Of a stretch of DNA of 64,000 nt, positions 761 to 46,566 are shown in pieces. How positions within the stretch are numbered: position 1 is the stretch's first letter; each line of letters opens with the position of its first letter. Below the pieces are notes generated by a model, which saw nothing but the letters and a program-made list of their open reading frames with translations, was not told where the DNA came from and made no database searches. Both the position numbers and the translations under genes were made by a program. Location: positions 45,594-109,593 of the IMG/VR virus record IMGVR_UViG_3300009082_000018. One strand, given 5' to 3'. The DNA comes from a virus.

Positions 761-1088
761 TCAAGCAGCCTTCGGATAGGCCTCGTCGATCAAGTCCGCC
801 ACAGGGGCGTCCCGGTCGTGGTCTCCGAAGAACCGCTGATCTGGCGCACGCTCTACCAGCTGGGCTGAGTGTACCGCTCCCGTTGGTACTACAGGTACTG
901 GGACGGAAGCGCATACGACAGCGTTGGAACACACCAGACATAGTCTGGCGTGTGCTAGGCCGTACAGGCCTGGCAGGGCTGGGTGAGCTGGGGCCCCGCA
1001 TCTGTCGCAACGAAGGTACATGGTCTCCACTCAGTAAGCATCGATCCAAGTTGTGGTCGATTGAGATCAAAAGTCAAGAGGTTTTTTC

Positions 1089-1325
1089 ATGGATACCGTG
1101 ATCCACATCAGCCCTGTTGGTTGGTGGGTCTCCTATAAGAAGGACCAATGGACCGGTCCCTTCAAGGATGAGAACGAGGCCCACGAAGCGGCCAAGGTGA
1201 TTGTGCCGATGATCTATCCGGAGTACCAGCTACTACGGGTCATGCCGTGGGAACGGAAGACCTGTCCCAACGTCTACAACGAATTGTTGACGAAGAAGAA
1301 TAGGAGATCGAAATGCCAGGACTGA
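1089..1325 (+). CDS. Hypothetical protein
   Basis: ORF overlapping start of next gene. Confidence 0.55.
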   Translation: MDTVIHISPVGWWVSYKKDQWTGPFKDENEAHEAAKVIVPMIYPEYQLLRVMPWERKTCPNVYNELLTKKNRRSKCQD

Positions 1326-2098
1326 TCATCAATGGCAAAGAAGAACTGGTTGATGGACTCACCATCATCAACTACAAGGACGAGCCCAAGCTCAAGCTCA
1401 AGGCGGGCGAAGACATGCGGGCGCGCAAGACCCGCTGGATTCGTTCGATCGTCCTGCACAACACCAAGAACATCCAAACCAAGGTCAAGGCTGGCTTTGG
1501 TCCCTCCACCAATCTCGGCAAGCGCATCGCCGATCTTTGGGCCACGAGCAGCAAAAACGCTGGTGCTCACCTGTCCGTGGACTGGGACGGGACGGTCTAC
1601 TGCCACGCAGATCTACTTCAGGATGCGACCTACCACGCAAGTTCGATGAATGAGGTCTCGATCGGAATCGAGATCTACGAGGATGGGAAGGGCGTGGTGT
1701 ACGAGGGCCAGCTCGACGTCGTGGTCAAACTCGTGGTCTGGCTCTGCCGGCGCTTTGGTATCCAGATGCAGATGCCGATCGCCATGGACAACTCCGAGAT
1801 CTCTCGGATCAAGCGTGGCGGCGAAGACTGTGTAGGGGTGTTCGGTCACTGCCACCAGAACCACAAGGACAAGGCCCACGACCCTGGCATCGACATCTTC
1901 AAGCGCCTGAAAGCCGATGCTGGGTTCAAGGAGTTCGACTTCGCTCATCAGGGCATGCCTGATGACATCAAGTACTGGATGATCACCCAGAAGGCACTCG
2001 ATCTCGTAATCGACGGTGTGCCTGGCCCCAAGACCTGCGACGCACTCCAGGCTCGTGGGTTTGCCAACGGTCTCTACGACTGGAAGACGACACTGTGA
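1313..2098 (+). CDS. N-acetylmuramoyl-L-alanine amidase (endolysin) with C-terminal peptidoglycan-binding motif
   Basis: IVLHNT, AHLSVDWDG, SIGIE, FGH amidase_2 motifs; DGVPGPKT PG-binding motif; AGGAG SD. Confidence 0.85.
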   Translation: MPGLIINGKEELVDGLTIINYKDEPKLKLKAGEDMRARKTRWIRSIVLHNTKNIQTKVKAGFGPSTNLGKRIADLWATSSKNAGAHLSVDWDGTVYCHADLLQDATYHASSMNEVSIGIEIYEDGKGVVYEGQLDVVVKLVVWLCRRFGIQMQMPIAMDNSEISRIKRGGEDCVGVFGHCHQNHKDKAHDPGIDIFKRLKADAGFKEFDFAHQGMPDDIKYWMITQKALDLVIDGVPGPKTCDALQARGFANGLYDWKTTL

Positions 2099-2355
2099 TC
2101 TTGAAATTCAACAATAGCCAACAAGCCAGGTTGTTGGCAGAGCTGACAGGTGATCTGGTTCAAATCGAAGAGGCCGAGATCAAACACCCAACACTTGACC
2201 ACATGTGCATGTTGGTTGGCAGTGTGAGAGATGGTGGTCGTACCAAGCTCTGGTTGCGGTTGGAGGAGGTTTCTGAACTGACTTCTGCTGTTGATCCTAT
2301 TCGTAGACCGCCGATTAGAATGAAAAAGAAACCACCACCCATGAGGCAAAAATGA
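2095..2355 (+). CDS. Hypothetical protein, C-terminal KKKPPP
   Basis: GTGA overlap with amidase stop. Confidence 0.6.
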   Translation: MILKFNNSQQARLLAELTGDLVQIEEAEIKHPTLDHMCMLVGSVRDGGRTKLWLRLEEVSELTSAVDPIRRPPIRMKKKPPPMRQK

Positions 2356-2535
2356 GAACCGTGATCATTTTGAAGGCACCAAAGCCGTGAAGTGTAGCAG
2401 AAGAGAAGATCGTCGTCGTCTTCGAGGTGGCTCGCAACTGACGCGTAAGAAGCGTCGACGAAATCGTATGCTGCGTCTGGTTCTCACTAGACGAAATCGC
2501 AGGGTACAGCGACAACAACTGGCCCAAGAGGAATT

Positions 2536-3303
2536 ATGATCAAGCAACCTCCCCCTGTTCGACCTCCGGTGAAAGGCTGGAAACAGGCGCCTGGCGGCAA
2601 GATTTTCACCGGGGACTGCATCGACATGCTCAAAGAGCTGAGTTCAGAGTCTGTTGATCTGTCAATCTTCGATCCCGCCTACGAAAGCCTGGAGAAGCAT
2701 CGAGCTGTCGGATCGAAGACCAGGCTCAAGCACTCCAAGGCCTCCAGCAACGATTGGTTCACGACCTTCCCCAACGCCCGATACGGGGAGCTGTTCCAGC
2801 AGCTCTTCCGAGTGATGAAGCCAGGGACTCACATCTACATGTTCTGCGACGAGGAGACTCGCGACGTGGTGACCTGTGGCTGGTCTCCTCAATCTCCGAA
2901 TGTCAACCTCGGTTTCTCACCCATCCTGGCCGCCGGCTTCAAGTACTGGAAGGCTCTCATCTGGGACAAGATGATCGCCGGCATGGGCTATCATTATCGA
3001 GCCCAGCACGAATTCATCGTTATGGCTGAGAAGATCGTGAGAGTGAACAAGCACCGGCAGCTAAACGATCTAGGACCAGGTGACGTCCTCCAGCATCGTC
3101 GCCTCAAGGGACCGGATTACTACCCGACGGAGAAGCCTCGAGAGTTGATCGAGCTGTTGGTGAAGCAGTCGTCGAATACAGGTGACACGGTGCTTGATAT
3201 GTTCGCTGGTTCTGGTGTGGTGGGTCAGGTCTGCCAGGACATCGATCGTCGTTTCATCCTGGGTGACATCGACACCAAAGAGATTCGCCTGAGACTCGTA
3301 TGA
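2536..3303 (+). CDS. DNA N4/N6 methyltransferase (beta class)
   Basis: GDCIDML, DPAY (DPPY-like), YPTEKP, VLDMFAGSG. Confidence 0.9.
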   Translation: MIKQPPPVRPPVKGWKQAPGGKIFTGDCIDMLKELSSESVDLSIFDPAYESLEKHRAVGSKTRLKHSKASSNDWFTTFPNARYGELFQQLFRVMKPGTHIYMFCDEETRDVVTCGWSPQSPNVNLGFSPILAAGFKYWKALIWDKMIAGMGYHYRAQHEFIVMAEKIVRVNKHRQLNDLGPGDVLQHRRLKGPDYYPTEKPRELIELLVKQSSNTGDTVLDMFAGSGVVGQVCQDIDRRFILGDIDTKEIRLRLV

Positions 3304-3773
3304 CCACGCTCAAGATCACCTTTGATCCCGATACCAAGTTCTGCCAGCTTCGCTTCGGCTACAATAAGCGATTTGCTGAATTCATGAAAAGTGGGATCAC
3401 TCCTCTTTCTTATCGGCGCTGGGTGGCAGACAAGAAGTACTGGGAGGTCCACGTCTCGAAGCTGGCTCGTGTGGTCGTGGTGGCCCGTCGCTACTTCGGT
3501 CATGTCGATTACTCAGAGCTGCCAGGTGGCCTACAGATCGAGCTGGCCATCAGGATGAGTGCCTTCGATGACGTGGAGGCACCGCCCAAGAGGACGGCTT
3601 CTACACCGCACGATGTGCTCTACCTGCTACCCACTGCGCCAATCGAGGTGGTCAAGGCAGCCTATCGAGCCCTGGCTCTTATTCATCACCCAGATCGGGG
3701 CGGTGACGAGGAAATCCTGAAGGAGATCAACTCTGCTTACGAAACCATCACTGAGGCGAAAAAAGAGGGTTGA
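3300..3773 (+). CDS. J-domain (DnaJ-like) protein with N-terminal HARP-like domain
   Basis: AYRALALIHHPDRGG...EINSAY. Confidence 0.85.
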   Translation: MTTLKITFDPDTKFCQLRFGYNKRFAEFMKSGITPLSYRRWVADKKYWEVHVSKLARVVVVARRYFGHVDYSELPGGLQIELAIRMSAFDDVEAPPKRTASTPHDVLYLLPTAPIEVVKAAYRALALIHHPDRGGDEEILKEINSAYETITEAKKEG

Positions 3774-3799
3774 CAAACGACCCGACCTAGTTCAAGGAT
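3770..3799 (+). promoter_or_regulatory. Possible sigma70-type promoter for leader/tRNA array
   Basis: TTGACA at 3770-3775; weak -10 (AAGGAT 3794-3799). Confidence 0.45.
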
Positions 3800-3804
3800 G
3801 AAGA

Positions 3805-3960
3805 ATGATGTTCCAAGCCGCAAAACGAACAAAGTCGAGCGCCCGGAGTTGGCGCGGGACGTGTTCGTTTAGCGTGCGCCCAGATCATAGCTCGAGGGAA
3901 TTGGGTACCCTGCAGTCTTACCCGAATACCCTCGAGCCCATTGGAGCGCCAGGCGGCTAG
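3805..3960 (+). CDS. Attenuator leader peptide, 51 aa (MMFQAAKRTKSSARSWRGTCSFSVRPDHSSRELGTLQSYPNTLEPIGAPGG)
   Basis: Open frame translated by hand; last codons CCAGGCGGC are complementary to the terminator 5' arm; 41 distinct codons. Confidence 0.7.
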   Translation: MMFQAAKRTKSSARSWRGTCSFSVRPDHSSRELGTLQSYPNTLEPIGAPGG

Positions 3961-3985
3961 GACTCGAGGAAACATAGGACTCGAG

Positions 3986-4018
3986 AGGCCGCCTGGGAAA
4001 CCAAGCGGCCTTTTTTTT
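3986..4018 (+). terminator. Intrinsic terminator (attenuator) directly upstream of the first tRNA
   Basis: AGGCCGC-C-TGG GAAA CCA-A-GCGGCCT hairpin plus T8. Confidence 0.9.
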
Positions 4019-4023
4019 GTTCT

Positions 4024-4095
4024 GGGTGGTTCGTCCAACTGGAAGGGCCCCGGGCCGTAACCCCGGCTATCTAGGTTCGACTCCTAGACCACCCA
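4024..4095 (+). tRNA. tRNA-Tyr(GUA), C33, short variable loop
   Basis: Cloverleaf; loop ccGTAac. Confidence 0.75.
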
Positions 4096-4162
4096 TTGGA
4101 GATCGACTATGTGCTTGCAGGAATTCATGCACCGCTTGAAACAGAGGCTTGAGTCAGATCAA

Positions 4163-4235
4163 GCCTCCGTGGTGCAGCGGCTAGCACACATGGCTTTTAC
4201 CCATCGAGACGCAGGTTCGAGTCCTGCCGGGGGCA
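4163..4235 (+). tRNA. tRNA-Lys(UUU)
   Basis: Cloverleaf; loop ctTTTac. Confidence 0.85.
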
Positions 4236-4247
4236 CTGAAGGAAGTC

Positions 4248-4319
4248 GGGCTCGAAGTGTTATGGTTGCACAGCGGACTCTTAATCCGACAAGTGAGGGT
4301 TCAACTCCCTCCGGGCCCA
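4248..4319 (+). tRNA. tRNA-Lys(CUU)
   Basis: Loop ctCTTaa. Confidence 0.85.
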
Positions 4320-4330
4320 TTGAGAATTGA

Positions 4331-4402
4331 TCCGGGTTAGCCTAGCGGCAAAGGCAGCGCGCTCTGACCGCGCCATCGAAGGTTCGAGTCCTTCACCCGG
4401 AA
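4331..4402 (+). tRNA. tRNA-Gln(CUG)
   Basis: Loop ctCTGac. Confidence 0.9.
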
Positions 4403-4448
4403 CTGCGCAACTGGCCCTTGACAATTGAATAGCTGGTCGTGGTCGTTT

Positions 4449-4523
4449 GGTGAGGTCGTCCAATCGGTAGGACACCAGACTGAAAATCTGGGAACGACGG
4501 TTCGACTCCGTCCCTTGCCACCA
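4449..4523 (+). tRNA. tRNA-Phe(GAA)
   Basis: Loop ctGAAaa; CCA encoded. Confidence 0.9.
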
Positions 4524-4526
4524 CTT

Positions 4527-4597
4527 GGGCCTGTAGCTTGAAGGTCGAGCCACCGGCTCATAACCGGTTGGTGAGTGTTCGATTCACTCCGGGCCTA
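4527..4597 (+). tRNA. tRNA-CAU (Ile2-like or Met)
   Basis: Loop ctCATaa; GGGCCUG acceptor. Confidence 0.85.
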
Positions 4598-4601
4598 TTG
4601 A

Positions 4602-4672
4602 TCGGGTGTCGTCTAACGGTAGGGCCGTGGACTTTGGATCCATGAATAGAGGTTCGACTCCTCTCACCCGAA
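4602..4672 (+). tRNA. tRNA-Gln(UUG)
   Basis: Loop ctTTGga. Confidence 0.9.
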
Positions 4673-4674
4673 AA

Positions 4675-4747
4675 CGGGGAGTAGGGCATTGGATGACCCG
4701 CTTGCTTTGGGAGCAAGAATAAGCTGGTTCGATTCCAGTCTCCCCGA
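4675..4747 (+). tRNA. tRNA-Pro(UGG)
   Basis: Loop ttTGGga. Confidence 0.9.
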
Positions 4748-4758
4748 CTGATCTTCAT

Positions 4759-4833
4759 TCCAGAGTAGCTCAAAGGTGGAGCGGCGCCCTGTTAAGGCGA
4801 TGGCTGGGGGTTCGAGTCCCTCCTCTGGAGCCA
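4759..4833 (+). tRNA. tRNA-Asn(GUU)
   Basis: Loop ctGTTaa; CCA encoded. Confidence 0.9.
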
Positions 4834-4845
4834 GTAAAGTTGATC

Positions 4846-4917
4846 CGCCTCGTGGCTCAGTGGTCCGAGCAGTCGGCCGATAACCGACAGGCGAGAGTTC
4901 GATTCTCTCCGAGGCGA
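4846..4917 (+). tRNA. tRNA-Ile(GAU), C33
   Basis: Loop ccGATaa. Confidence 0.85.
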
Positions 4918-4929
4918 AAAGAAGATCAT

Positions 4930-5002
4930 GGCGGACGAAGCCAAACGGTGCGGCGCCTGACTGTGGATCAGGTTCTAGGGGGTTCGACTCCCCTCGTTCG
5001 CC
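4930..5002 (+). tRNA. tRNA-His(GUG)
   Basis: Loop ctGTGga; G-1/C73. Confidence 0.9.
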
Positions 5003-5103
5003 CTCGCACATGTTATGCTCCTGCGCAGGTCTACCAGAGCGGGCCAGATCGCCCTTGAATGGGCGTGGAGGGCGGCGCAGGCGGGCCAGGGCGGGGAGCG
5101 CTT

Positions 5104-5175
5104 GGGGACGTAGTGATAGCGGGAGCACACGGCGTTCGCAACGCTGAAGTGAGGGTTCGACTCCCTCCGTCTCCA
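5104..5175 (+). tRNA. tRNA-Ala(CGC)
   Basis: Loop ttCGCaa; G3:U70. Confidence 0.9.
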
Positions 5176-5181
5176 CTCTCT

Positions 5182-5252
5182 GGGCTCATAGTGAAATGGG
5201 ATCACGCAGCCTCGGCAAGGCTGAATCCCGGGTTCAACTCCCGGTGGGTCCA
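5182..5252 (+). tRNA. tRNA-Ala(GGC), C33
   Basis: Loop tcGGCaa; G3:U70. Confidence 0.85.
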
Positions 5253-5257
5253 CTCTT

Positions 5258-5340
5258 GGAGGGTACTGAGGAATGGTCCTCAACATGGTCCGAACCCATG
5301 GGCGGCCGAAAGACCGGGCGTTCGATTCGTCTACCCTCCG
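5258..5340 (+). tRNA. tRNA-Ser(CGA), C33
   Basis: Loop tcCGAac; long V arm; G73. Confidence 0.85.
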
Positions 5341-5368
5341 CTGATTGTTGATCTGAAAATTGTACCAT

Positions 5369-5439
5369 GGACGCGGAAGCTGTCGGATGGCTGACCGGCT
5401 GTCTACCGGTTGAAGAGGGTTCAACTCCCTTCGCGTCCG
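5369..5439 (+). tRNA. tRNA-Asp(GUC)
   Basis: Loop ctGTCta; G73. Confidence 0.8.
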
Positions 5440-5440
5440 C

Positions 5441-5514
5441 CGCAGGGTTGAGGAGAGGTCTACCTCGCCTGGCTCATAACCAGGAGCACGTTGGTTCAAA
5501 TCCAACCCCTGCTA
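5441..5514 (+). tRNA. tRNA-CAU, initiator-like
   Basis: Loop ctCATaa; C1:U72 mismatch. Confidence 0.8.
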
Positions 5515-5516
5515 GC

Positions 5517-5588
5517 GCGGTTGAGGTGTTTGTGGTTGCACGCGGCGTTGCCAACGCTGAAGACAGGGTTCGACTCCCTGCAGCCGCA
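5517..5588 (+). tRNA. tRNA-Gly(GCC)
   Basis: Loop ttGCCaa. Confidence 0.9.
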
Positions 5589-5590
5589 AC

Positions 5591-5663
5591 GCCGGAGGTC
5601 GAGGGTTCAAATCCCTCCAGGCTCCCGCAAGGGACCTGTAGCTCAGTCAGGTAGAGCACCGGC
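5591..5663 (+). ncRNA. Circularly permuted tRNA-like RNA without anticodon loop
   Basis: Order GCCGG / AGGTC / T arm GAGGG-TTCAAAT-CCCTC / acceptor-like stem closed by GCAA / TA / D arm GCTC..GAGC / CCGGC. Confidence 0.8.
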
Positions 5664-5667
5664 TTCT

Positions 5668-5752
5668 GGAAGGTGACCCGTAATGGTACGGGAGCTGGTT
5701 GCTAACCAGTCAGGGGGTAACGCCCCAGCAGGTTCGATTCCTGCACCTTCCG
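5668..5752 (+). tRNA. tRNA-Ser(GCU)
   Basis: Loop ttGCTaa; long V arm. Confidence 0.9.
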
Positions 5753-5759
5753 CCGGATT

Positions 5760-5843
5760 GGAGAGCGAGAAGCAGGGTGCGCAACTGCGTTGGAAGCGCA
5801 GGAGGGTTGAAAGGCCCGCTGGGTTCGATTCCCAGGCTCTCCG
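5760..5843 (+). tRNA. tRNA-Ser(GGA)
   Basis: Loop ttGGAag; long V arm; weak D stem. Confidence 0.8.
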
Positions 5844-5936
5844 CTAGATGAGTCGACTGACACGGAGACGGCAGCTGATCCCGGTCCCCAAGGGCGTCTT
5901 ACGGCTGACGGGCTGTCAGAGCACGACTCATCGCAT

Positions 5937-6008
5937 GCGGGTGAGATGTTAACGGTTGCATGTCAGTCTTCCAAACTGAATGACGGAGTTCAACTCTCCG
6001 CACCCGCA
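5937..6008 (+). tRNA. tRNA-Gly(UCC)
   Basis: Loop ctTCCaa. Confidence 0.9.
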
Positions 6009-6022
6009 CCGTATAGTTGATC

Positions 6023-6101
6023 CGGGATGTAGCTCAGCCAGGGAGAGCGCTCGCTTCGGGAGCGAGAGGTTTCGTGGGTTCGAACCCCACCATCCCGACC
6101 A
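6023..6101 (+). tRNA. tRNA-Pro(CGG)
   Basis: Loop ttCGGga; CCA encoded. Confidence 0.9.
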
Positions 6102-6103
6102 AT

Positions 6104-6177
6104 GCCAAGGTAGCCCAACAGGAAGTGGCACACGCCTCAGGCGCGTGACAGTGAGGGTTCGAATCCCTTCCTTGGCA
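6104..6177 (+). tRNA. tRNA-Leu(CAG), no long V arm
   Basis: Loop ctCAGgc. Confidence 0.85.
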
Positions 6178-6182
6178 TCTTC

Positions 6183-6254
6183 GCCGCCAAAGCGTAAAGG
6201 GTGACGCGCCGGCTTCGTACACCGGAGAACCCAGTTCAACTCTGGGTGGCGGCT
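6183..6254 (+). tRNA. tRNA-Thr(CGU)
   Basis: Loop ttCGTac; U73. Confidence 0.85.
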
Positions 6255-6256
6255 CT

Positions 6257-6389
6257 GGGTGGACCGACAGAGGTTGGATTATCCATGCTAAGGACGAGGT
6301 CGCGGGTTCGAATCCCGTCGGGCTCCTTCGGGGGCCCGTGGCTCAGCGGTAGAGCGCGTAAAACTCCAGCTTCAACCCCTTGTTCACCC
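6257..6389 (+). ncRNA. YrlA-type Y RNA inside the tRNA array
   Basis: GGGTGGACCGAC...CTTGTTCACCC closing stem, TTATC motif, internal T-arm/acceptor/D-arm module. Confidence 0.8.
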
Positions 6390-6393
6390 TACT

Positions 6394-6464
6394 GCCGGAT
6401 GATGACTCCTGGGGAGTCAGCGCACTTGTAAGGCGCCAGGGCGGTTCGACTCCGACATCCGGCT
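6394..6464 (+). tRNA. Atypical tRNA-Thr(UGU)
   Basis: Loop ctTGTaa; 8-bp acceptor possible; 6-bp D stem GACTCC/GGAGTC. Confidence 0.65.
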
Positions 6465-6476
6465 CTGATCTGAAAT

Positions 6477-6548
6477 GGCCTTGTCTGCTAACGGTAGGCA
6501 ACCTGGTTCTCACCCAGGAAACGATGGGTTCAACTCCCTCCAAGGTCA
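6477..6548 (+). tRNA. tRNA-Glu(CUC)
   Basis: Loop ttCTCac. Confidence 0.85.
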
Positions 6549-6553
6549 CTGAC

Positions 6554-6625
6554 GGCCCCATCTGCTAACGGTAGGCACCGTGGTTTTCACCCACGCAACG
6601 GCGGGTTCAACTCCCCCTGGGGTCA
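6554..6625 (+). tRNA. tRNA-Glu(UUC)
   Basis: Loop ttTTCac. Confidence 0.85.
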
Positions 6626-6629
6626 CTGA

Positions 6630-6702
6630 GGGCGCTTCGTCTAGCGGCAAGGACCCCTGCTCGACACGCAGGTGATCGCCGGTTCGAGTCCGGCAGTGCC
6701 CA
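6630..6702 (+). tRNA. tRNA-Val(GAC), C33
   Basis: Loop tcGACac. Confidence 0.85.
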
Positions 6703-6706
6703 CTTC

Positions 6707-6778
6707 GGGGAGTTGGTGAAACTGGGATCACACGGCCCTTGCACGGCTGGATCAGGGGTTCAAATCCCCTACTCTCCA
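6707..6778 (+). tRNA. tRNA-Ala(UGC)
   Basis: Loop ctTGCac; G3:U70. Confidence 0.9.
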
Positions 6779-6844
6779 CTACCTGCACAGGTCATTGCCG
6801 ATATGACTAGTCTGTCAGAAGGGATGGTCTGTGCGGGGTCGATT

Positions 6845-6917
6845 GCCGCCAAAGTCCACGTGGTCGGGACGCCTGCTTGGTACGCAGGAGGGCAGAGTTC
6901 GATTCTCTGTGGCGGCT
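6845..6917 (+). tRNA. tRNA-Thr(GGU)
   Basis: Loop ttGGTac. Confidence 0.9.
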
Positions 6918-6975
6918 CCGCTGATTATCAGCATTTCACTTATGAAGATCACTGATAATCACTGATGAGACTGAT

Positions 6976-7046
6976 GGGGTTGAGGCTGAGGTAGCCGGAC
7001 GGTCTCCAAAACCGTCGTCGAGGGGGTTCGATTCCCTCCAACCCTG
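6976..7046 (+). tRNA. tRNA-Trp(CCA)
   Basis: Loop ctCCAaa; G73. Confidence 0.85.
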
Positions 7047-7051
7047 CTGAT

Positions 7052-7122
7052 GAGTCCGTGTCCGAGAGGCGAGGTACCTGGCTGCAACCCAGGTCACGGG
7101 GGTTCAAATCCCTCCGGACTCT
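7052..7122 (+). tRNA. tRNA-Cys(GCA)
   Basis: Loop ctGCAac; U73. Confidence 0.85.
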
Positions 7123-7127
7123 CTGAT

Positions 7128-7203
7128 GCACCCGTGGTCCAAAGGATGGGCACCGGTCCTCTAAACCGGATCCATGCTGGTTCGAGTCCAGCCGGGTGTG
7201 CCA
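7128..7203 (+). tRNA. tRNA-Arg(UCU), C33
   Basis: Loop ccTCTaa; CCA encoded. Confidence 0.85.
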
Positions 7204-7204
7204 A

Positions 7205-7277
7205 GGTCCCGTGGTCTAAAGGATGGGCACCTGTTTCCTAAACAGGATCAATGCAGGTTCGAGTCCTGCCGGGATCA
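7205..7277 (+). tRNA. tRNA-Arg(CCU)
   Basis: Loop ttCCTaa. Confidence 0.9.
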
Positions 7278-7281
7278 CTGA

Positions 7282-7355
7282 GCTGCGATAGTGTAGGGGA
7301 CTCTGCACGGTGCTCTCCGAAAGCACAGGTCTGGGCTCGACTCCCAGTCGCAGCA
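7282..7355 (+). tRNA. tRNA-Arg(CCG)
   Basis: Loop ctCCGaa; T loop CTCGACT. Confidence 0.8.
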
Positions 7356-7357
7356 TT

Positions 7358-7430
7358 GGGCGGTTCTCCTAGCGGAATGGAACCTGACCTACACTCAGGA
7401 ATAATGGGGGTTCAACTCCCTCACCGCCCA
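7358..7430 (+). tRNA. tRNA-Val(UAC), C33
   Basis: Loop ccTACac. Confidence 0.8.
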
Positions 7431-7434
7431 TCAT

Positions 7435-7506
7435 CTGCCCATGGTCTAAAGGAAGGGCCCCTGACTACGGATCAGGTGCATGCAGGTTCGAGTCCTGCTG
7501 GGCAGG
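7435..7506 (+). tRNA. tRNA-Arg(ACG)
   Basis: Loop ctACGga. Confidence 0.9.
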
Positions 7507-7512
7507 CTACAC

Positions 7513-7587
7513 GCCGGGGTGGCGCAAATGGAAGATCGCTCCAGACTTAGGATCTGGCTGTTGAGGGTTCGAATCCCTTCCCCGGTA
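7513..7587 (+). tRNA. tRNA-Leu(UAG), no long V arm
   Basis: Loop ctTAGga. Confidence 0.85.
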
Positions 7588-7590
7588 CTT

Positions 7591-7664
7591 GGCAGCAGGG
7601 AGGAGAGGGACTCCTCACCGCTCTCATAAAACGGGAATTGCTGGTTCGATCCCAGCTGCTGCCA
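7591..7664 (+). tRNA. tRNA-CAU (elongator Met-like)
   Basis: Loop ctCATaa. Confidence 0.8.
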
Positions 7665-7667
7665 CGA

Positions 7668-7740
7668 GCCCTCGTAGCCCAAGAGGAAGCGGCATCGCCT
7701 TAAAAGCGATCAAGTGGGGGTTCGAGTCCCTCCGGGGGCA
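7668..7740 (+). tRNA. tRNA-Leu(UAA), no long V arm
   Basis: Loop ctTAAaa. Confidence 0.85.
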
Positions 7741-7743
7741 CAC

Positions 7744-7816
7744 CGAGGAGTAGGGCATTGGATGACCCGCTCGGATGGGGTCCGAGAGCAAGCTGGTTCG
7801 ATTCCAGTCTCCTCGA
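7744..7816 (+). tRNA. tRNA-Pro(GGG)
   Basis: Loop atGGGgt. Confidence 0.85.
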
Positions 7817-7825
7817 TCTTGATAT

Positions 7826-7899
7826 GCCAGGGTAGCCCAATCGGTAGTGGCACCAGCCCGAGGCGCTGGACAGTGTGGGTTCGAATCCCATCCCTGGTA
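7826..7899 (+). tRNA. tRNA-Leu(GAG), C33, no long V arm
   Basis: Loop ccGAGgc. Confidence 0.85.
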
Positions 7900-7903
7900 C
7901 TAT

Positions 7904-7978
7904 GGCGCGGTAGCCCAACTGGTAGGAGGCACCGGCCTCAAGCTCCGGACAGTGAGGGTTCGAATCCCTCTCGCGCTA
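7904..7978 (+). tRNA. tRNA-Leu(CAA), no long V arm
   Basis: Loop ctCAAgc. Confidence 0.85.
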
Positions 7979-8018
7979 CGACTTGTGAAAACGACCACGA
8001 TCTGCTATTGGTGCAATC

Positions 8019-8528
8019 ATGCAAACGCTCGTACTCGACCAAGGCTACCAGCCGATCAACACCGTCCCTTGGACCAAGGCGATGGGATACATCGCCCGTG
8101 GCAAGGTCGACGTGCTGGAGGAGTACGAGCAGGAGGTCCACTTCAACATGGGCATGCCGGCGGTGGTGAGGCTCAACCATCGCATCAGTGCCAGCAAGAA
8201 GAGGATCAAGTTCTCTCGTCAGAATGTGCTGGCGAGGGACAAGTTCAGTTGCCAGTACTGCGGCGCCCACGGACGTGACGTGGTTCTAACCTTCGATCAC
8301 ATCATCCCCAGGTCTCGGGGTGGTCGAACAGAGTGGGAGAACATCGTCATGGCCTGCCAGGAGTGCAATGCACGAAAGGCTGACCTGACGCTGAGAGAAT
8401 CGGGAATGCGTCTGCGGACGCAGCCTGTTCGACCGACGTGGGTGCCCACTTTCAACGTCGCTCTGCGGGATGCTGGCAACATCCCACCAGAGTGGCGGAA
8501 CTACTGGACAACAGAGCTGCAGCCGTAG
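8019..8528 (+). CDS. HNH endonuclease (McrA-like)
   Basis: RDKFSCQYCG...TFDHIIPRSRGG...NIVMACQECNARK. Confidence 0.92.
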   Translation: MQTLVLDQGYQPINTVPWTKAMGYIARGKVDVLEEYEQEVHFNMGMPAVVRLNHRISASKKRIKFSRQNVLARDKFSCQYCGAHGRDVVLTFDHIIPRSRGGRTEWENIVMACQECNARKADLTLRESGMRLRTQPVRPTWVPTFNVALRDAGNIPPEWRNYWTTELQP

Positions 8529-8591
8529 AACCTTGTCCGGAATACTTCCTTGTCCTCTACGTAGCGGACAGGGAGGAAAACCGGACAACTT

Positions 8592-8674
8592 GGAGGGTGC
8601 CGCCGGTTGGTTGGCAACACGGTTTGAACCCGTGGGTGGTCGCAAGGCTAGGGGTTCGACTCCTCCACCCTCCG
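8592..8674 (+). tRNA. tRNA-Ser(UGA)
   Basis: Loop ttTGAac; long V arm; G73. Confidence 0.85.
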
Positions 8675-8705
8675 CTCTTCCCGCCAAATCCTTCATGATT
8701 ATTTT

Positions 8706-9103: not shown

Positions 9104-10705
9104 GTGCAGAACTTCGGTGGCTCGTTCTCGACTGTTAGCACTCCGCAGACCCAGCCGACCCCGGGCAAGAACGAAATCAAGATGCGCTCCGGTGGCTACG
9201 GCTTCGCCGTGGATGACTGGGTGCGCCTCAACCGGTTTTTGATCATGGGCTCGGAGGGCGGAACCTACTACGCCTCGGAACGCGAGATGACCAAGGTCGC
9301 CAGCGATGCGGCCATGAGGCTGGTCAGACAGAATGGTGTGGCGGTGGTCAACCACGTCGTCGAGATCAGCCAGTCCGGTCGTGCGTTCAAGAACGATCCG
9401 GCGCTGTGGGTTCTGGCCATGGCATCGCAGCTCGGTGATCAGGCTACCAAAGAGCTGGCGTACAAGTCGCTGCCGTTGGTGGCACGCATCTCGACCCACC
9501 TGTTCCACTGGCTGCAGTACACCAAGGCCTTCGGGCACCAGGGAGGCAACGGCTTCAAGCGGGCAGTGGCACGATGGTACCTGGAGCAGACACCGGCTCA
9601 TCTGGCTCACCAGGTCGTGAAGTATCAGGCTCGTGATGGGTGGTCGCACCTGGACGCTCTTCGGATCGGTCACCCGACTCCGTCGGATGAGCTGTTCCAG
9701 GCAATCTTCCACTACGTCAAGCACGGCAGGACCAAAGATCTGTCGGCGGTTGCGGCGGTTCCGGAAGAGCTGACGCTCATCTGGGCGTGGGAGAAGATCA
9801 AAGAGGCAAAGAACGCCGATGAGGTCGCCAATCTGATCAGTGCTTTCAAGTTGCCGCACGAGTGCGTGCCGAACGAGTGGAAAGACCAGCAGGGGGTCTG
9901 GGGTGCGTTGTTGAACTCGATGGCACCGCACGCCATGCTGCGGAACCTGGGCAAGATGACCTCGGTGGGTCTGCTAGAGGGCAAGTCGGCGGCGGTGCAG
10001 AAGGTCGTGGACACGCTGACGGACATGGAGCGTCTGAAGAAGGCCAGGATGCACCCGATGTCGGTGCTGACTGCGTTGGCGGTCTACCGGACGGGCCGTG
10101 GCATCAAGGGCTCGCTGAGCTGGAACCCGAACCGTCGGGTGATCGACGCGCTCGATGAGGCCTTCTACCTGTCCTTCGGGACAGTGACGCCGACGGGCAA
10201 GCGGCTGCTTCTGGCCCTGGACGTATCAGGGTCGATGGGATCGCCGTGCGCTGGTTCTCCGCTGACCTGCAGGGAGGCGACGGCAGCCATGGCGATGGTC
10301 ACGGCACGGACGGAAGAGGACTACGAGATCGTCGGCTTCTGCGACAGCCTGAAGACGCTGAGCATCTCGCCGAAGCAGCGTCTGGATGACGTCGTGGAGT
10401 CGATCTCCCATCTGTCCTTCGGAGGCACGGACTGCAGCTTGCCGTTCCGTTGGGCGCAGTCCAAGCAGCAGAAGTTCGACGGTGTTATCACCTACACCGA
10501 CAATGAGAGTTGGGGAGGTCCAGTGAAGGTTCACCAGGCAATGCAGCAGTATCGCCAGAAGATGGGCACCACAACCAAGGGAGCCTTCGTGGCCTTTGCG
10601 GCCAATGAGTACTCGGTGGCAGACCCGGACGACGCGGGTCAGATGAACTTCGTGGGCCTGGACGCCAACCTGCCACAGGCGCTCTCCAGCTTCATTGGAG
10701 AGTAG
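9104..10705 (+). CDS. rsr: Ro60-related TROVE/vWA RNA-binding protein
   Basis: LNRFLIMGSEGGTYY, VKYQARDGWSH, MLRNLGKM, LALDVSGSM, GGTDCSLP, YTDNE; GGAGG SD. Confidence 0.95.
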   Translation: MQNFGGSFSTVSTPQTQPTPGKNEIKMRSGGYGFAVDDWVRLNRFLIMGSEGGTYYASEREMTKVASDAAMRLVRQNGVAVVNHVVEISQSGRAFKNDPALWVLAMASQLGDQATKELAYKSLPLVARISTHLFHWLQYTKAFGHQGGNGFKRAVARWYLEQTPAHLAHQVVKYQARDGWSHLDALRIGHPTPSDELFQAIFHYVKHGRTKDLSAVAAVPEELTLIWAWEKIKEAKNADEVANLISAFKLPHECVPNEWKDQQGVWGALLNSMAPHAMLRNLGKMTSVGLLEGKSAAVQKVVDTLTDMERLKKARMHPMSVLTALAVYRTGRGIKGSLSWNPNRRVIDALDEAFYLSFGTVTPTGKRLLLALDVSGSMGSPCAGSPLTCREATAAMAMVTARTEEDYEIVGFCDSLKTLSISPKQRLDDVVESISHLSFGGTDCSLPFRWAQSKQQKFDGVITYTDNESWGGPVKVHQAMQQYRQKMGTTTKGAFVAFAANEYSVADPDDAGQMNFVGLDANLPQALSSFIGE

Positions 10706-45592: not shown

Positions 45593-46566
45593 TCAATCTT
45601 CCATGGCGCATCAGGACGCTCGATACGGCGGGCCTTCCTGGCCTTCTCTTCCTCCTCAGCAGCTTTCATCATTGCGTCTACAGCAGCGATGTGCATTGAA
45701 GGATCATCTTGCGGCCATTGGCCAAGATACTCACGACGGAAGTGATCTGTGTTTCCTGTGTGGCCAACGGAAAGTACAATGCCATCGATGATCTTTTTGA
45801 TCTCAGATTCTGAATCGGTGATGGCCCAATTGGGCATGTGGTTCTTGGCAAAATTGACGATCTCAAACATGCTGCTATGGATCTCCTGAGCAGTCTGTGC
45901 ATTGTTACGGCTACCGATGAATTTGTCCGCTTCAGAGATCATCTTCTCAGCAATGGCCTGCAGAGCTTTTTGCTTTCCGCCACGATGCCAGTCTCGAAGA
46001 CTGGCCTCGATGACCTCTATGAACTGCTGGTGACTAGGTCTGTTCAATGAATTCGGATCAATATTGGTCAACGTTGTGCGGAATGCCAAACTCGATGATG
46101 GAAGCTGCTGTGTCTCCGTAAAGAACGAAGATGGTGCAGTGTTGTCGATGTCAATCGTCTGCTCCAAAACCCAGGTGCAATAGGCCGAATCGGCCGACCG
46201 CACTAGCAGCCCCATCGGCAAATGGACCTGCCCAGACTGAGGCACCAGCAGTTCTATCTCCGGCGAGATGCTTTGCTGGCTGTGCCTGACCTGGACTACC
46301 TCCAAAGTGGCCACAATCCCTCTGCTGTCGCAGAAGTCAAGATGATCTCCTGGGCGAAGGTCTTGGTTTCGGATGGCGTGATGACCTTTGATCCAAAATG
46401 TTTGCATGGGTGTCGGTATCCTCATTGAATTGATGATCGACTGCTTGAGATGCTCCTGCCATTTTGCCCAATGTGAATCAAGATCAGAGTTGCTGATCTT
46501 AATTGACTTGATCTCAAATTCAGCGGACCCCATACTCCGTACTCCGTAGCTATAGATCGCGCGCAC
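45589..46566 (-). CDS. Hypothetical protein ending RPDAPWKIE
   Basis: Long ORF. Confidence 0.65.
   Translation of the reverse strand: MRAIYSYGVRSMGSAEFEIKSIKISNSDLDSHWAKWQEHLKQSIINSMRIPTPMQTFWIKGHHAIRNQDLRPGDHLDFCDSRGIVATLEVVQVRHSQQSISPEIELLVPQSGQVHLPMGLLVRSADSAYCTWVLEQTIDIDNTAPSSFFTETQQLPSSSLAFRTTLTNIDPNSLNRPSHQQFIEVIEASLRDWHRGGKQKALQAIAEKMISEADKFIGSRNNAQTAQEIHSSMFEIVNFAKNHMPNWAITDSESEIKKIIDGIVLSVGHTGNTDHFRREYLGQWPQDDPSMHIAAVDAMMKAAEEEEKARKARRIERPDAPWKIE

Follow-up and report, generated by a model that had tools for sequence, protein, structure and literature searches.

How does a phage control a tRNA array that serves all 20 amino acids? Little is known of how phage tRNA arrays are regulated, although their part in codon adaptation, in translation late in infection and in escape from tRNA-targeting defences is actively studied. 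The question is raised by a 64,000-nucleotide stretch of the virus record IMGVR_UViG_3300009082_000018 (positions 45,594 to 109,593; hereafter the window), which makes up the right-hand 64 kb of the 109.6-kb record (~55% G+C). It carries 43 tRNA genes behind a short open reading frame (ORF) and an intrinsic terminator. We consider it likely that this region is a ribosome-mediated (leader-peptide) transcription attenuator that gates the complete tRNA array and whose leader is built to hold every amino acid. The parts of the putative switch, in window positions, are as follows.

3770 to 3775, plus strand: -35-like hexamer TTGACA after an A-rich tract, at a conserved place in 11 DNA homologues; putative promoter element.
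3793 to 3798, plus strand: candidate -10 hexamer CAAGGA, read from the sequence, overlapping an AAGGA Shine-Dalgarno-like motif 6 nucleotides (nt) before the ATG.
3805 to 3960, plus strand: leader ORF of 51 sense codons and a TAG stop, with 20 amino acids and 41 distinct codons; frame, start and stop are conserved.
3816 to 3822, plus strand: segment R1, AGCCGCA (codons 4-6), predicted to pair with R2 in the untranslated leader (minimum free energy fold and consensus fold, four homologues).
3823 to 3870, plus strand: hairpin domain 1 inside the ORF (consensus fold), with compensated pairs at, for example, columns 27-70, 28-69 and 43-54.
3874 to 3949, plus strand: hairpin domain 2 inside the ORF, a long stem GCTCGAGGG...CCCTCGAGC (consensus fold).
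3949 to 3958, plus strand: segment R2, CCA GGC GGC (the last three sense codons) and the T of the stop codon; 5' strand of the antiterminator.
3963 to 3985, plus strand: spacer hairpin CTCGAG ... CTCGAG inside the antiterminator helix; a hairpin of 4-6 base pairs (bp) is predicted here in all nine folded homologues.
3987 to 3996, plus strand: segment R3, the 5' arm of the terminator, common to antiterminator and terminator.
4001 to 4010, plus strand: segment R4, the 3' arm of the terminator, with one C·A mismatch against R3.
4011 to 4018, plus strand: T8 tract of the intrinsic terminator.
4023 to 8675, plus strand: array of 43 tRNA genes for all 20 amino acids, in an order that begins Tyr-Lys-Lys-Gln.

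The terminator stem (GGCCGC-C-TGG / GAAA / CCA-A-GCGGCC, 3987-4010) precedes the T8 tract and folds at -17.1 kcal/mol. A simple consensus scan did not pick up the terminator (3987-4018) because of its internal mismatch. The tRNA-Tyr gene starts at 4023/4024, 4-5 nt past the T run, and there is no space for a further promoter between the two. The last three codons of the ORF, CCAGGCGGC (3949-3957), are the exact reverse complement of GCCGCCTGG (3988-3996) in the terminator 5' arm. A preliminary description of this stretch, made from the letters alone, had pointed to the 51-codon ORF with its 20 amino acids and 41 distinct codons, to a strong terminator just before the first tRNA, and to this complementarity; all three are present in the sequence as described.

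The same arrangement, with a promoter-like TTGACA hexamer, an ORF of 44-63 codons, a spacer hairpin, an intrinsic terminator and tRNAs, stands at the head of tRNA arrays in 10 other phage or metagenome DNAs (L001/L013, L032, L031, L033, L037/L055, L056, L052, L036/L046, L177 and L178). Six further leader peptides are available as protein records only (P0005, P0006, P0008, P0010, P0011 and P0012). The downstream tRNA order Tyr-Lys-Lys-Gln-... is common to most of the homologous DNA loci, and the stop codon lies 50-58 nt from the T run in all nine homologues measured. L056 has a small ORF inserted between the leader terminator and the tRNAs. A TTGAC(A/T/G) hexamer occupies the same place in all 11 DNA homologues, followed ~17 nt further on by a weak -10-like hexamer (yAyAnn). 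In the window's clade the ATG follows this hexamer by only 6-9 nt, and the leader mRNA may be leaderless there; L055, L056, L052 and L036 have longer 5' leaders with GGAG/GAGG motifs.

The pairing between R2 and R3 is maintained across these loci. The predicted helix spans 8-10 bp in eight of nine folded homologues and encloses the 4-6 bp spacer hairpin, while L036 has an interrupted helix of 6+2 bp; the pairing in L177 and L178 was read by eye, outside the nine. In a ten-sequence alignment, 95% of the R2:R3 cells are paired, a share that falls to 22-54% if the partner strand is displaced by 1-3 columns. For example, at pair 12-62 five sequences have A-U, two have G-C and one has U-A, and L031 carries a three-way change that touches R2, R3 and R4. 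The ORF of L056 is one codon longer and the register of the helix moves along with it (GGCGGCUCC / GGAGCCGCC). The antiterminator folds at -24 to -30 kcal/mol and the terminator at -16 to -21. Alignment position 62 of R3 (T3994 in the window) is paired with R2 in 8 of 10 sequences and with R4 in 3 of 10, and it is unpaired in the terminator in 7 of 10. A position that is mismatched against R4 and nonetheless paired with R2 suggests that the terminator is kept weaker than its competitor.

The window's clade also has a predicted third pairing, R1:R2, which the consensus fold shows for the window, L001, L031 and L033 (columns 12-21 with 160-166, all paired). The clade fold contains ten compensated pairs, including columns 80-156, 92-149, 93-148, 94-147, 102-138 and 105-135 in domain 2. 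Together, R1:R2, R2:R3 and R3:R4 would give this clade the classical 1:2 / 2:3 / 3:4 topology of attenuators. R1:R2 is not dominant in L001, L052 or L055, and L036 has no clear R1. Hairpin domain 1 could serve in pausing RNA polymerase or as insulation.

Is the ORF a genuine reading frame or a by-product of RNA structure? Its start and stop positions are kept across the homologues, with an ATG or GTG start and a fixed stop position in 11 DNAs, and all ORF indels in a five-sequence alignment are 3 or 6 nt long. The ratio of nonsynonymous to synonymous polymorphism (pN/pS) lies between 0.43 and 0.9 and third positions are slightly over-represented among the changes; neither Pfam nor PHROG has a family that matches the peptide. 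It thus seems that the frame is important and the amino-acid sequence itself of little importance, and the leader is probably translated. One could propose instead that an RNA-only switch (a riboswitch, or a protein-binding or tRNA-binding leader) controls the terminator and that the open frame merely accompanies the conserved structure. This is consistent with a fold far better than that of shuffled sequences (z = -5.3), with the location of the ten compensated pairs inside the ORF, with the fixation of GGCGGC at the nucleotide level and with a nucleotide identity that exceeds the amino-acid identity. Furthermore, the window has an open in-register antisense frame (3787-4038, minus strand, 83 codons) that spans the ORF and the terminator and reaches into the first part of tRNA-Tyr. 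However, this frame is interrupted in L001, and no Rfam family, T-box (RF00230) included, matches positions 3774-4022 at E <= 1. Nor does an RNA-only switch explain why indels come in multiples of three, why the start and stop are fixed, or why the amino-acid completeness described below persists while residues relocate. We therefore regard it as unlikely.

The strongest argument for a translated sensor is the composition of the peptide. All 17 distinct leader peptides (44-63 amino acids) hold all 20 amino acids, so that 0 of 323 (peptide, amino-acid) cells are empty, against 42-47 expected by chance. The chance of completeness per peptide of 44-55 codons is 1.7-7.6% with uniform codons, 0.7-3.8% with the pooled composition of the leaders and 0.7-2.9% in genome windows; only 2% of the stop-free 51-codon windows of this genome contain all 20 amino acids. 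Five of the peptides (P0010, P0011, P0012, L177 and L178) were recovered after the completeness rule had been set, and all five are complete, as predicted. The preliminary description had proposed the inverse of the trp/his design, in which runs of one codon type act as the sensor. This is supported: the window's leader has no codon runs, all 17 peptides are complete, eight amino acids occur exactly once in the window's peptide, and Trp, Cys and His each occur exactly once in 14-15 of the 17.

Furthermore, single-copy residues move. Within the alignable clade, the single Cys is in column 33 in most sequences and in column 48 in L033. The single His is in column 63 in most, in column 41 in the window and in column 38 in P0012, and the single Ile is in column 17 in most, in column 64 in the window and in column 49 in P0012. 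Asn, Tyr, Asp and Val likewise relocate between columns. Such relocation between homologues indicates selection for presence rather than for position. A branch test, in which only the residues differing from the nearest relative were redrawn, gave probabilities of completeness of 0.075, 0.029, 0.029, 0.009, 0.0024 and 0.061 on six separate branches (product ~1e-10). From these sequence comparisons we conclude that amino-acid completeness is selected.

The same comparisons bear on the view that the ORF encodes a small functional protein. The hairpin would then terminate this one-gene unit and the upstream genes, the array would be expressed by leak-through or from internal promoters, and completeness would carry no regulatory meaning. 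The window's clade does share the motifs W-x-G-T-C-x-F-x-V-R-P, Y-P-N-T-L-E-H-E and P-G-G, its pN/pS is below 1, and the ORF is predicted by gene callers in public data. However, the observed pN/pS is high for a folded protein, and there is the lack of a Pfam or PHROG match. The peptides of L052, L036/P0008, L177 and L178 cannot be aligned with the others and yet are complete, and the four lineages L052, L036, L177 and L178 keep the length, the position and the GGC GGC before the stop. The R2:R3 covariation, the weakened terminator and the completeness of 17 of 17 peptides with relocating residues would all be left unexplained. We thus find this view very improbable.

Does selection extend from amino acids to codons? 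The preliminary description had estimated by hand that 51 uniform draws would give about 35 distinct codons (standard deviation, SD, about 2.3) and that biased coding DNA would give fewer. Both expectations hold. The uniform null has a mean of 34.7 and an SD of 2.32 (P(>=41) = 0.006), and the 68,244 stop-free 51-codon windows in the six frames of the 109.6-kb genome average 30.2 distinct codons, with three loci that reach 41. A diversity statistic picked after seeing one sequence cannot bear the claim alone, and relatives were therefore sought. In each of the nine DNAs, the leader has more distinct codons than its peptide would lead one to expect (z = +0.1 to +2.7). Thus, codon-level diversity beyond completeness is only moderately supported. 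The description had also suggested that homologues should keep codon diversity and antiterminator pairing and not the peptide; pairing and completeness are indeed kept while the peptide drifts, and the support for codon diversity is moderate.

A cognate leader codon exists for 35 of the 41 distinct array anticodons under strict pairing and for 40 of 41 with U34 wobble. Given the peptide, this coverage has P = 0.036 (strict) or 0.001 (wobble), and P <= 3e-4 against random ORFs. The strict count equals the 37 of 43 tRNAs reported earlier, with the same missing classes (ATA, TCA, CTA, TTA, GTY and AGA). The lack of TTA, CTA and TCA codons in the leader is the equivalent of the open antisense frame, which trivially has the same codon diversity. 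We rejected that antisense ORF (3787-4038) as a real gene because it crosses the terminator and tRNA-Tyr and is interrupted in L001.

How could such a leader work? Transcription would start at the conserved TTGACA promoter, and a ribosome would translate the 51-codon leader as RNA polymerase advances. A ribosome keeping pace would be on the last ~6 codons or the stop, masking R2 (3949-3958), as R3 emerges. With R2 masked, the R3:R4 terminator (3987-4018) would form and the transcript would be released 4-5 nt before tRNA-Tyr. A ribosome delayed at any codon, be it by a scarce, cleaved or uncharged tRNA of any amino acid or by impaired translation, would leave R2 free. Free R2 could then pair with R3 around the spacer hairpin, and this antiterminator, more stable and made first, would let the polymerase enter the 43 tRNA genes. 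More tRNA would bring translation speed back and turn the array off, a negative feedback on decoding capacity. The scheme presupposes a functional promoter and terminator in the host and an increase in readthrough upon stalling. To judge from the selected completeness and from how well the leader covers the anticodons, what the switch senses would be charged-tRNA supply. A link to anticodon nucleases is speculation on our part.

We modelled this decision by equilibrium folding of nine leaders, holding a 27-nt stretch single-stranded at each position of the ribosomal A site. The terminator probability was 0.9-1.0 in all nine leaders when the A site lay on the stop or within the last ~6 codons. 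With the ribosome upstream, it was ~0-0.1 in L001, L032 and L052 at essentially all positions and mostly low in L055 and L056. The preliminary description had held that a ribosome at the end of the ORF masks the antiterminator and that a stall nearly anywhere frees it. The first part agrees with the model, in which the last ~6 codons restore the terminator; the second calls for refinement in the window, where readthrough is not predicted at every stall under equilibrium folding.

A further possibility is a translated attenuator that responds not to tRNA supply but to the overall coupling of transcription and translation, or to how far the infection has advanced (host shut-off, availability of ribosomes), and whose 20-amino-acid content only buffers it against single amino acids. 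L001, L032, L052 and L055 default to the antiterminator when no ribosome is present, so that the loss of translation itself would turn the array on, and, with no codon runs, no single amino acid should weigh heavily. What this proposal finds hard to explain is selection for every amino acid at least once, and usually exactly once, if no codon matters; the anticodon coverage poses the same difficulty. As a full account of the locus we think it improbable. It overlaps with a response to tRNA supply, and the two are not mutually exclusive.

Several observations weigh against an attenuator that responds to any stall. The window, L031 and L033 gave a mixed outcome in the equilibrium folding: once it has emerged behind the ribosome, R1 is able to pair with R2 again, and the terminator is kept for many upstream stalls. 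The terminator of L036 wins at every modelled position, and the first tRNA of that locus lies ~1 kb past the terminator. Readthrough after any stall would therefore need kinetic folding or queued ribosomes. The real decision is kinetic: R4 is transcribed after R2 and R3, and R1 would be covered by queued ribosomes; readthrough after any stall thus seems plausible in the window itself. At the 5' end, the -10 element is weak and the apparent Shine-Dalgarno motif is possibly upstream of the transcription start. The invariance of the GGCGGC/GCCGCC core leaves the covariation to a few flanking pairs. Moreover, the strong structure and compensated pairs of the ORF body mean that sequence conservation is partly at the RNA level, and 6 of the 17 leader peptides lack DNA context.

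The relatives were sought with the DnaJ-domain protein encoded next to the leader and then with the leader peptides, in a word-indexed protein database and a profile-searched protein library, as well as with the structural DNA pattern 'GGCGGCT, spacer, GCCGCC, loop, GCGGCYTTTT'. The pattern scan of genome contigs returned at least 120 matches, nearly all of them ordinary gene ends with a terminator; two among the matches listed had tRNAs downstream. Other routes were less productive. No match came from a blastn comparison of the region with 50,697 phage records, and tblastn with the neighbouring proteins gave distant relatives only, so that the phage has no close cultured relative. An exact 15-mer scan of viral contigs found almost only chance matches, and the tRNA sequences are too diverged to yield a shared 14-mer anchor. 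A single-peptide search returned the query alone, peptide scans of viral contigs with P0010 and P0011 found no match, and P0008 was absent from the phage collection. Two 16-residue matches (L034 and L035) had no tRNAs nearby and were set aside as spurious.

Some of these loci have features of their own. L177 and L178 are the contigs DATAVR010000089.1 and JBNLED010000093.1 (137 kb and 48 kb), which were binned into Polyangia (Myxococcota) metagenome-assembled genomes; this could point to the host or could reflect mis-binning of phage contigs. The ~198-kb relative L055 has a tmRNA gene (1315-1650, plus strand) ~1.3 kb upstream of its leader and tRNA array. In the 260-kb relative L036, plus-strand tRNAs lie among minus-strand ORFs of 109-190 amino acids with a repeated G-(H/R)-(L/I)-Y motif (900-2900, minus strand).

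The surroundings of the leader in the window are also of note. On its upstream side, a family search identified the following genes.

Ending at 3773, upstream of the leader: amidase, DNA methylase and DnaJ-domain genes.

The last of these (3300-3773, plus strand) lies directly upstream of the putative leader promoter and encodes a 157-amino-acid protein with the J domain at its C-terminus. It is 74% identical to the L001 copy, and L001 has an extra 103-amino-acid ORF between the DnaJ gene and the leader. The 43 tRNA genes of the array comprise 41 called by ARAGORN and two by Rfam (5257-5340 and 7282-7355, plus strand); from synteny with L001, the latter tRNA-like genes are probably Ser-CGA and Arg-CCG. 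ARAGORN also called a permuted tmRNA (4431-5051, plus strand), which overlaps seven tRNA genes and is almost certainly a false positive. An HNH endonuclease gene (8019-8528, plus strand) separates the last tRNA-Ser (8592-8675) from the main tRNA block. Just past the array is the gene of a Ro60/Rsr-type protein (9104-10705, plus strand) with TROVE and Ro60 vWA domains (E = 2e-55), and inside the array are two sub-threshold YrlA Y-RNA-like matches (5593-5661 and 6271-6381, plus strand; 39 and 37 bits, with the gathering score at 69). A Ro and Y-RNA module of the phage's own may accompany its tRNAs.

What would the switch do for the phage? We lean, by a narrow balance, towards the idea of a 'decoding test strip' in phages with complete arrays: a leader of ~50 codons that holds all 20 amino acids and codons for most array anticodons, so that a delay at any single codon would lead to antitermination. 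Such a leader would place the replacement tRNA set under closed-loop control and would also turn the array on automatically if host defences cleave or deplete any tRNA species. If this is true, attenuation has here been turned from sensing one amino acid to sensing decoding as a whole, with tRNAs as its target, and makes a compact homeostat of translation capacity. The 20-amino-acid leader rule gives a sharp and falsifiable signature by which further switches of this kind can be sought, and the ~250-nt cassette could be a portable reporter of translation stress.

How does this design compare with known systems? Attenuators of the trp/his type (trpL, hisL, leuL and pheL, and the multivalent thrL and ilvGMEDA) have a translated leader ORF, a terminator and an antiterminator that a ribosome covers when it reaches the end of the ORF. 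The phage locus resembles them in its short leader ORF, its terminator and exclusive antiterminator and, in the window's clade, its predicted 1:2 / 2:3 / 3:4 segments. It differs in its codons: in place of regulatory runs it has the full set of 20 amino acids, with the rarer ones for the most part present once. Its leader is longer (44-63 codons), with R1 and R2 ~130 nt apart around two structured domains, and its targets are phage-encoded tRNA genes rather than biosynthetic enzymes. In the pyrBI attenuator of E. coli, a close-following ribosome prevents the terminator and the input is UTP-dependent pausing. As in pyrBI, the output here would be set by how well the ribosome keeps pace with the polymerase and not by one amino acid. 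Unlike in pyrBI, a close ribosome would promote termination by masking the antiterminator, and the presumed input is decoding speed. T-box leaders bind one specific uncharged tRNA directly and need no translation. They share with the phage leader a terminator/antiterminator choice that reports on the tRNA pool, but in the phage leader the conserved ORF would be the sensor. A likeness of GGGTACC(GCG) to the T-box core was discarded, as it is not conserved in L056 and gives no covariance-model match.

A full-text literature search found no account of a leader peptide or attenuator before tRNA arrays. The closest system in print is the trn operon of Anabaena sp. PCC 7120, a long tRNA array that is induced under translational stress, and its control has been ascribed to the transcriptional repressor TrcR, with a leader peptide, attenuator or terminator unmentioned (PMC8421152; PMC10272220). 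Like the phage array, it is a large accessory set of tRNAs (up to 43 genes in such L-arrays); it is silent by default there and on under impaired translation. Unlike the phage array, it is bacterial and megaplasmid-borne. Thus, the phage locus appears to follow a known wiring principle, that of trp-type attenuation, and to be new in the codon content of its leader, in its tRNA target and in its phage owner.

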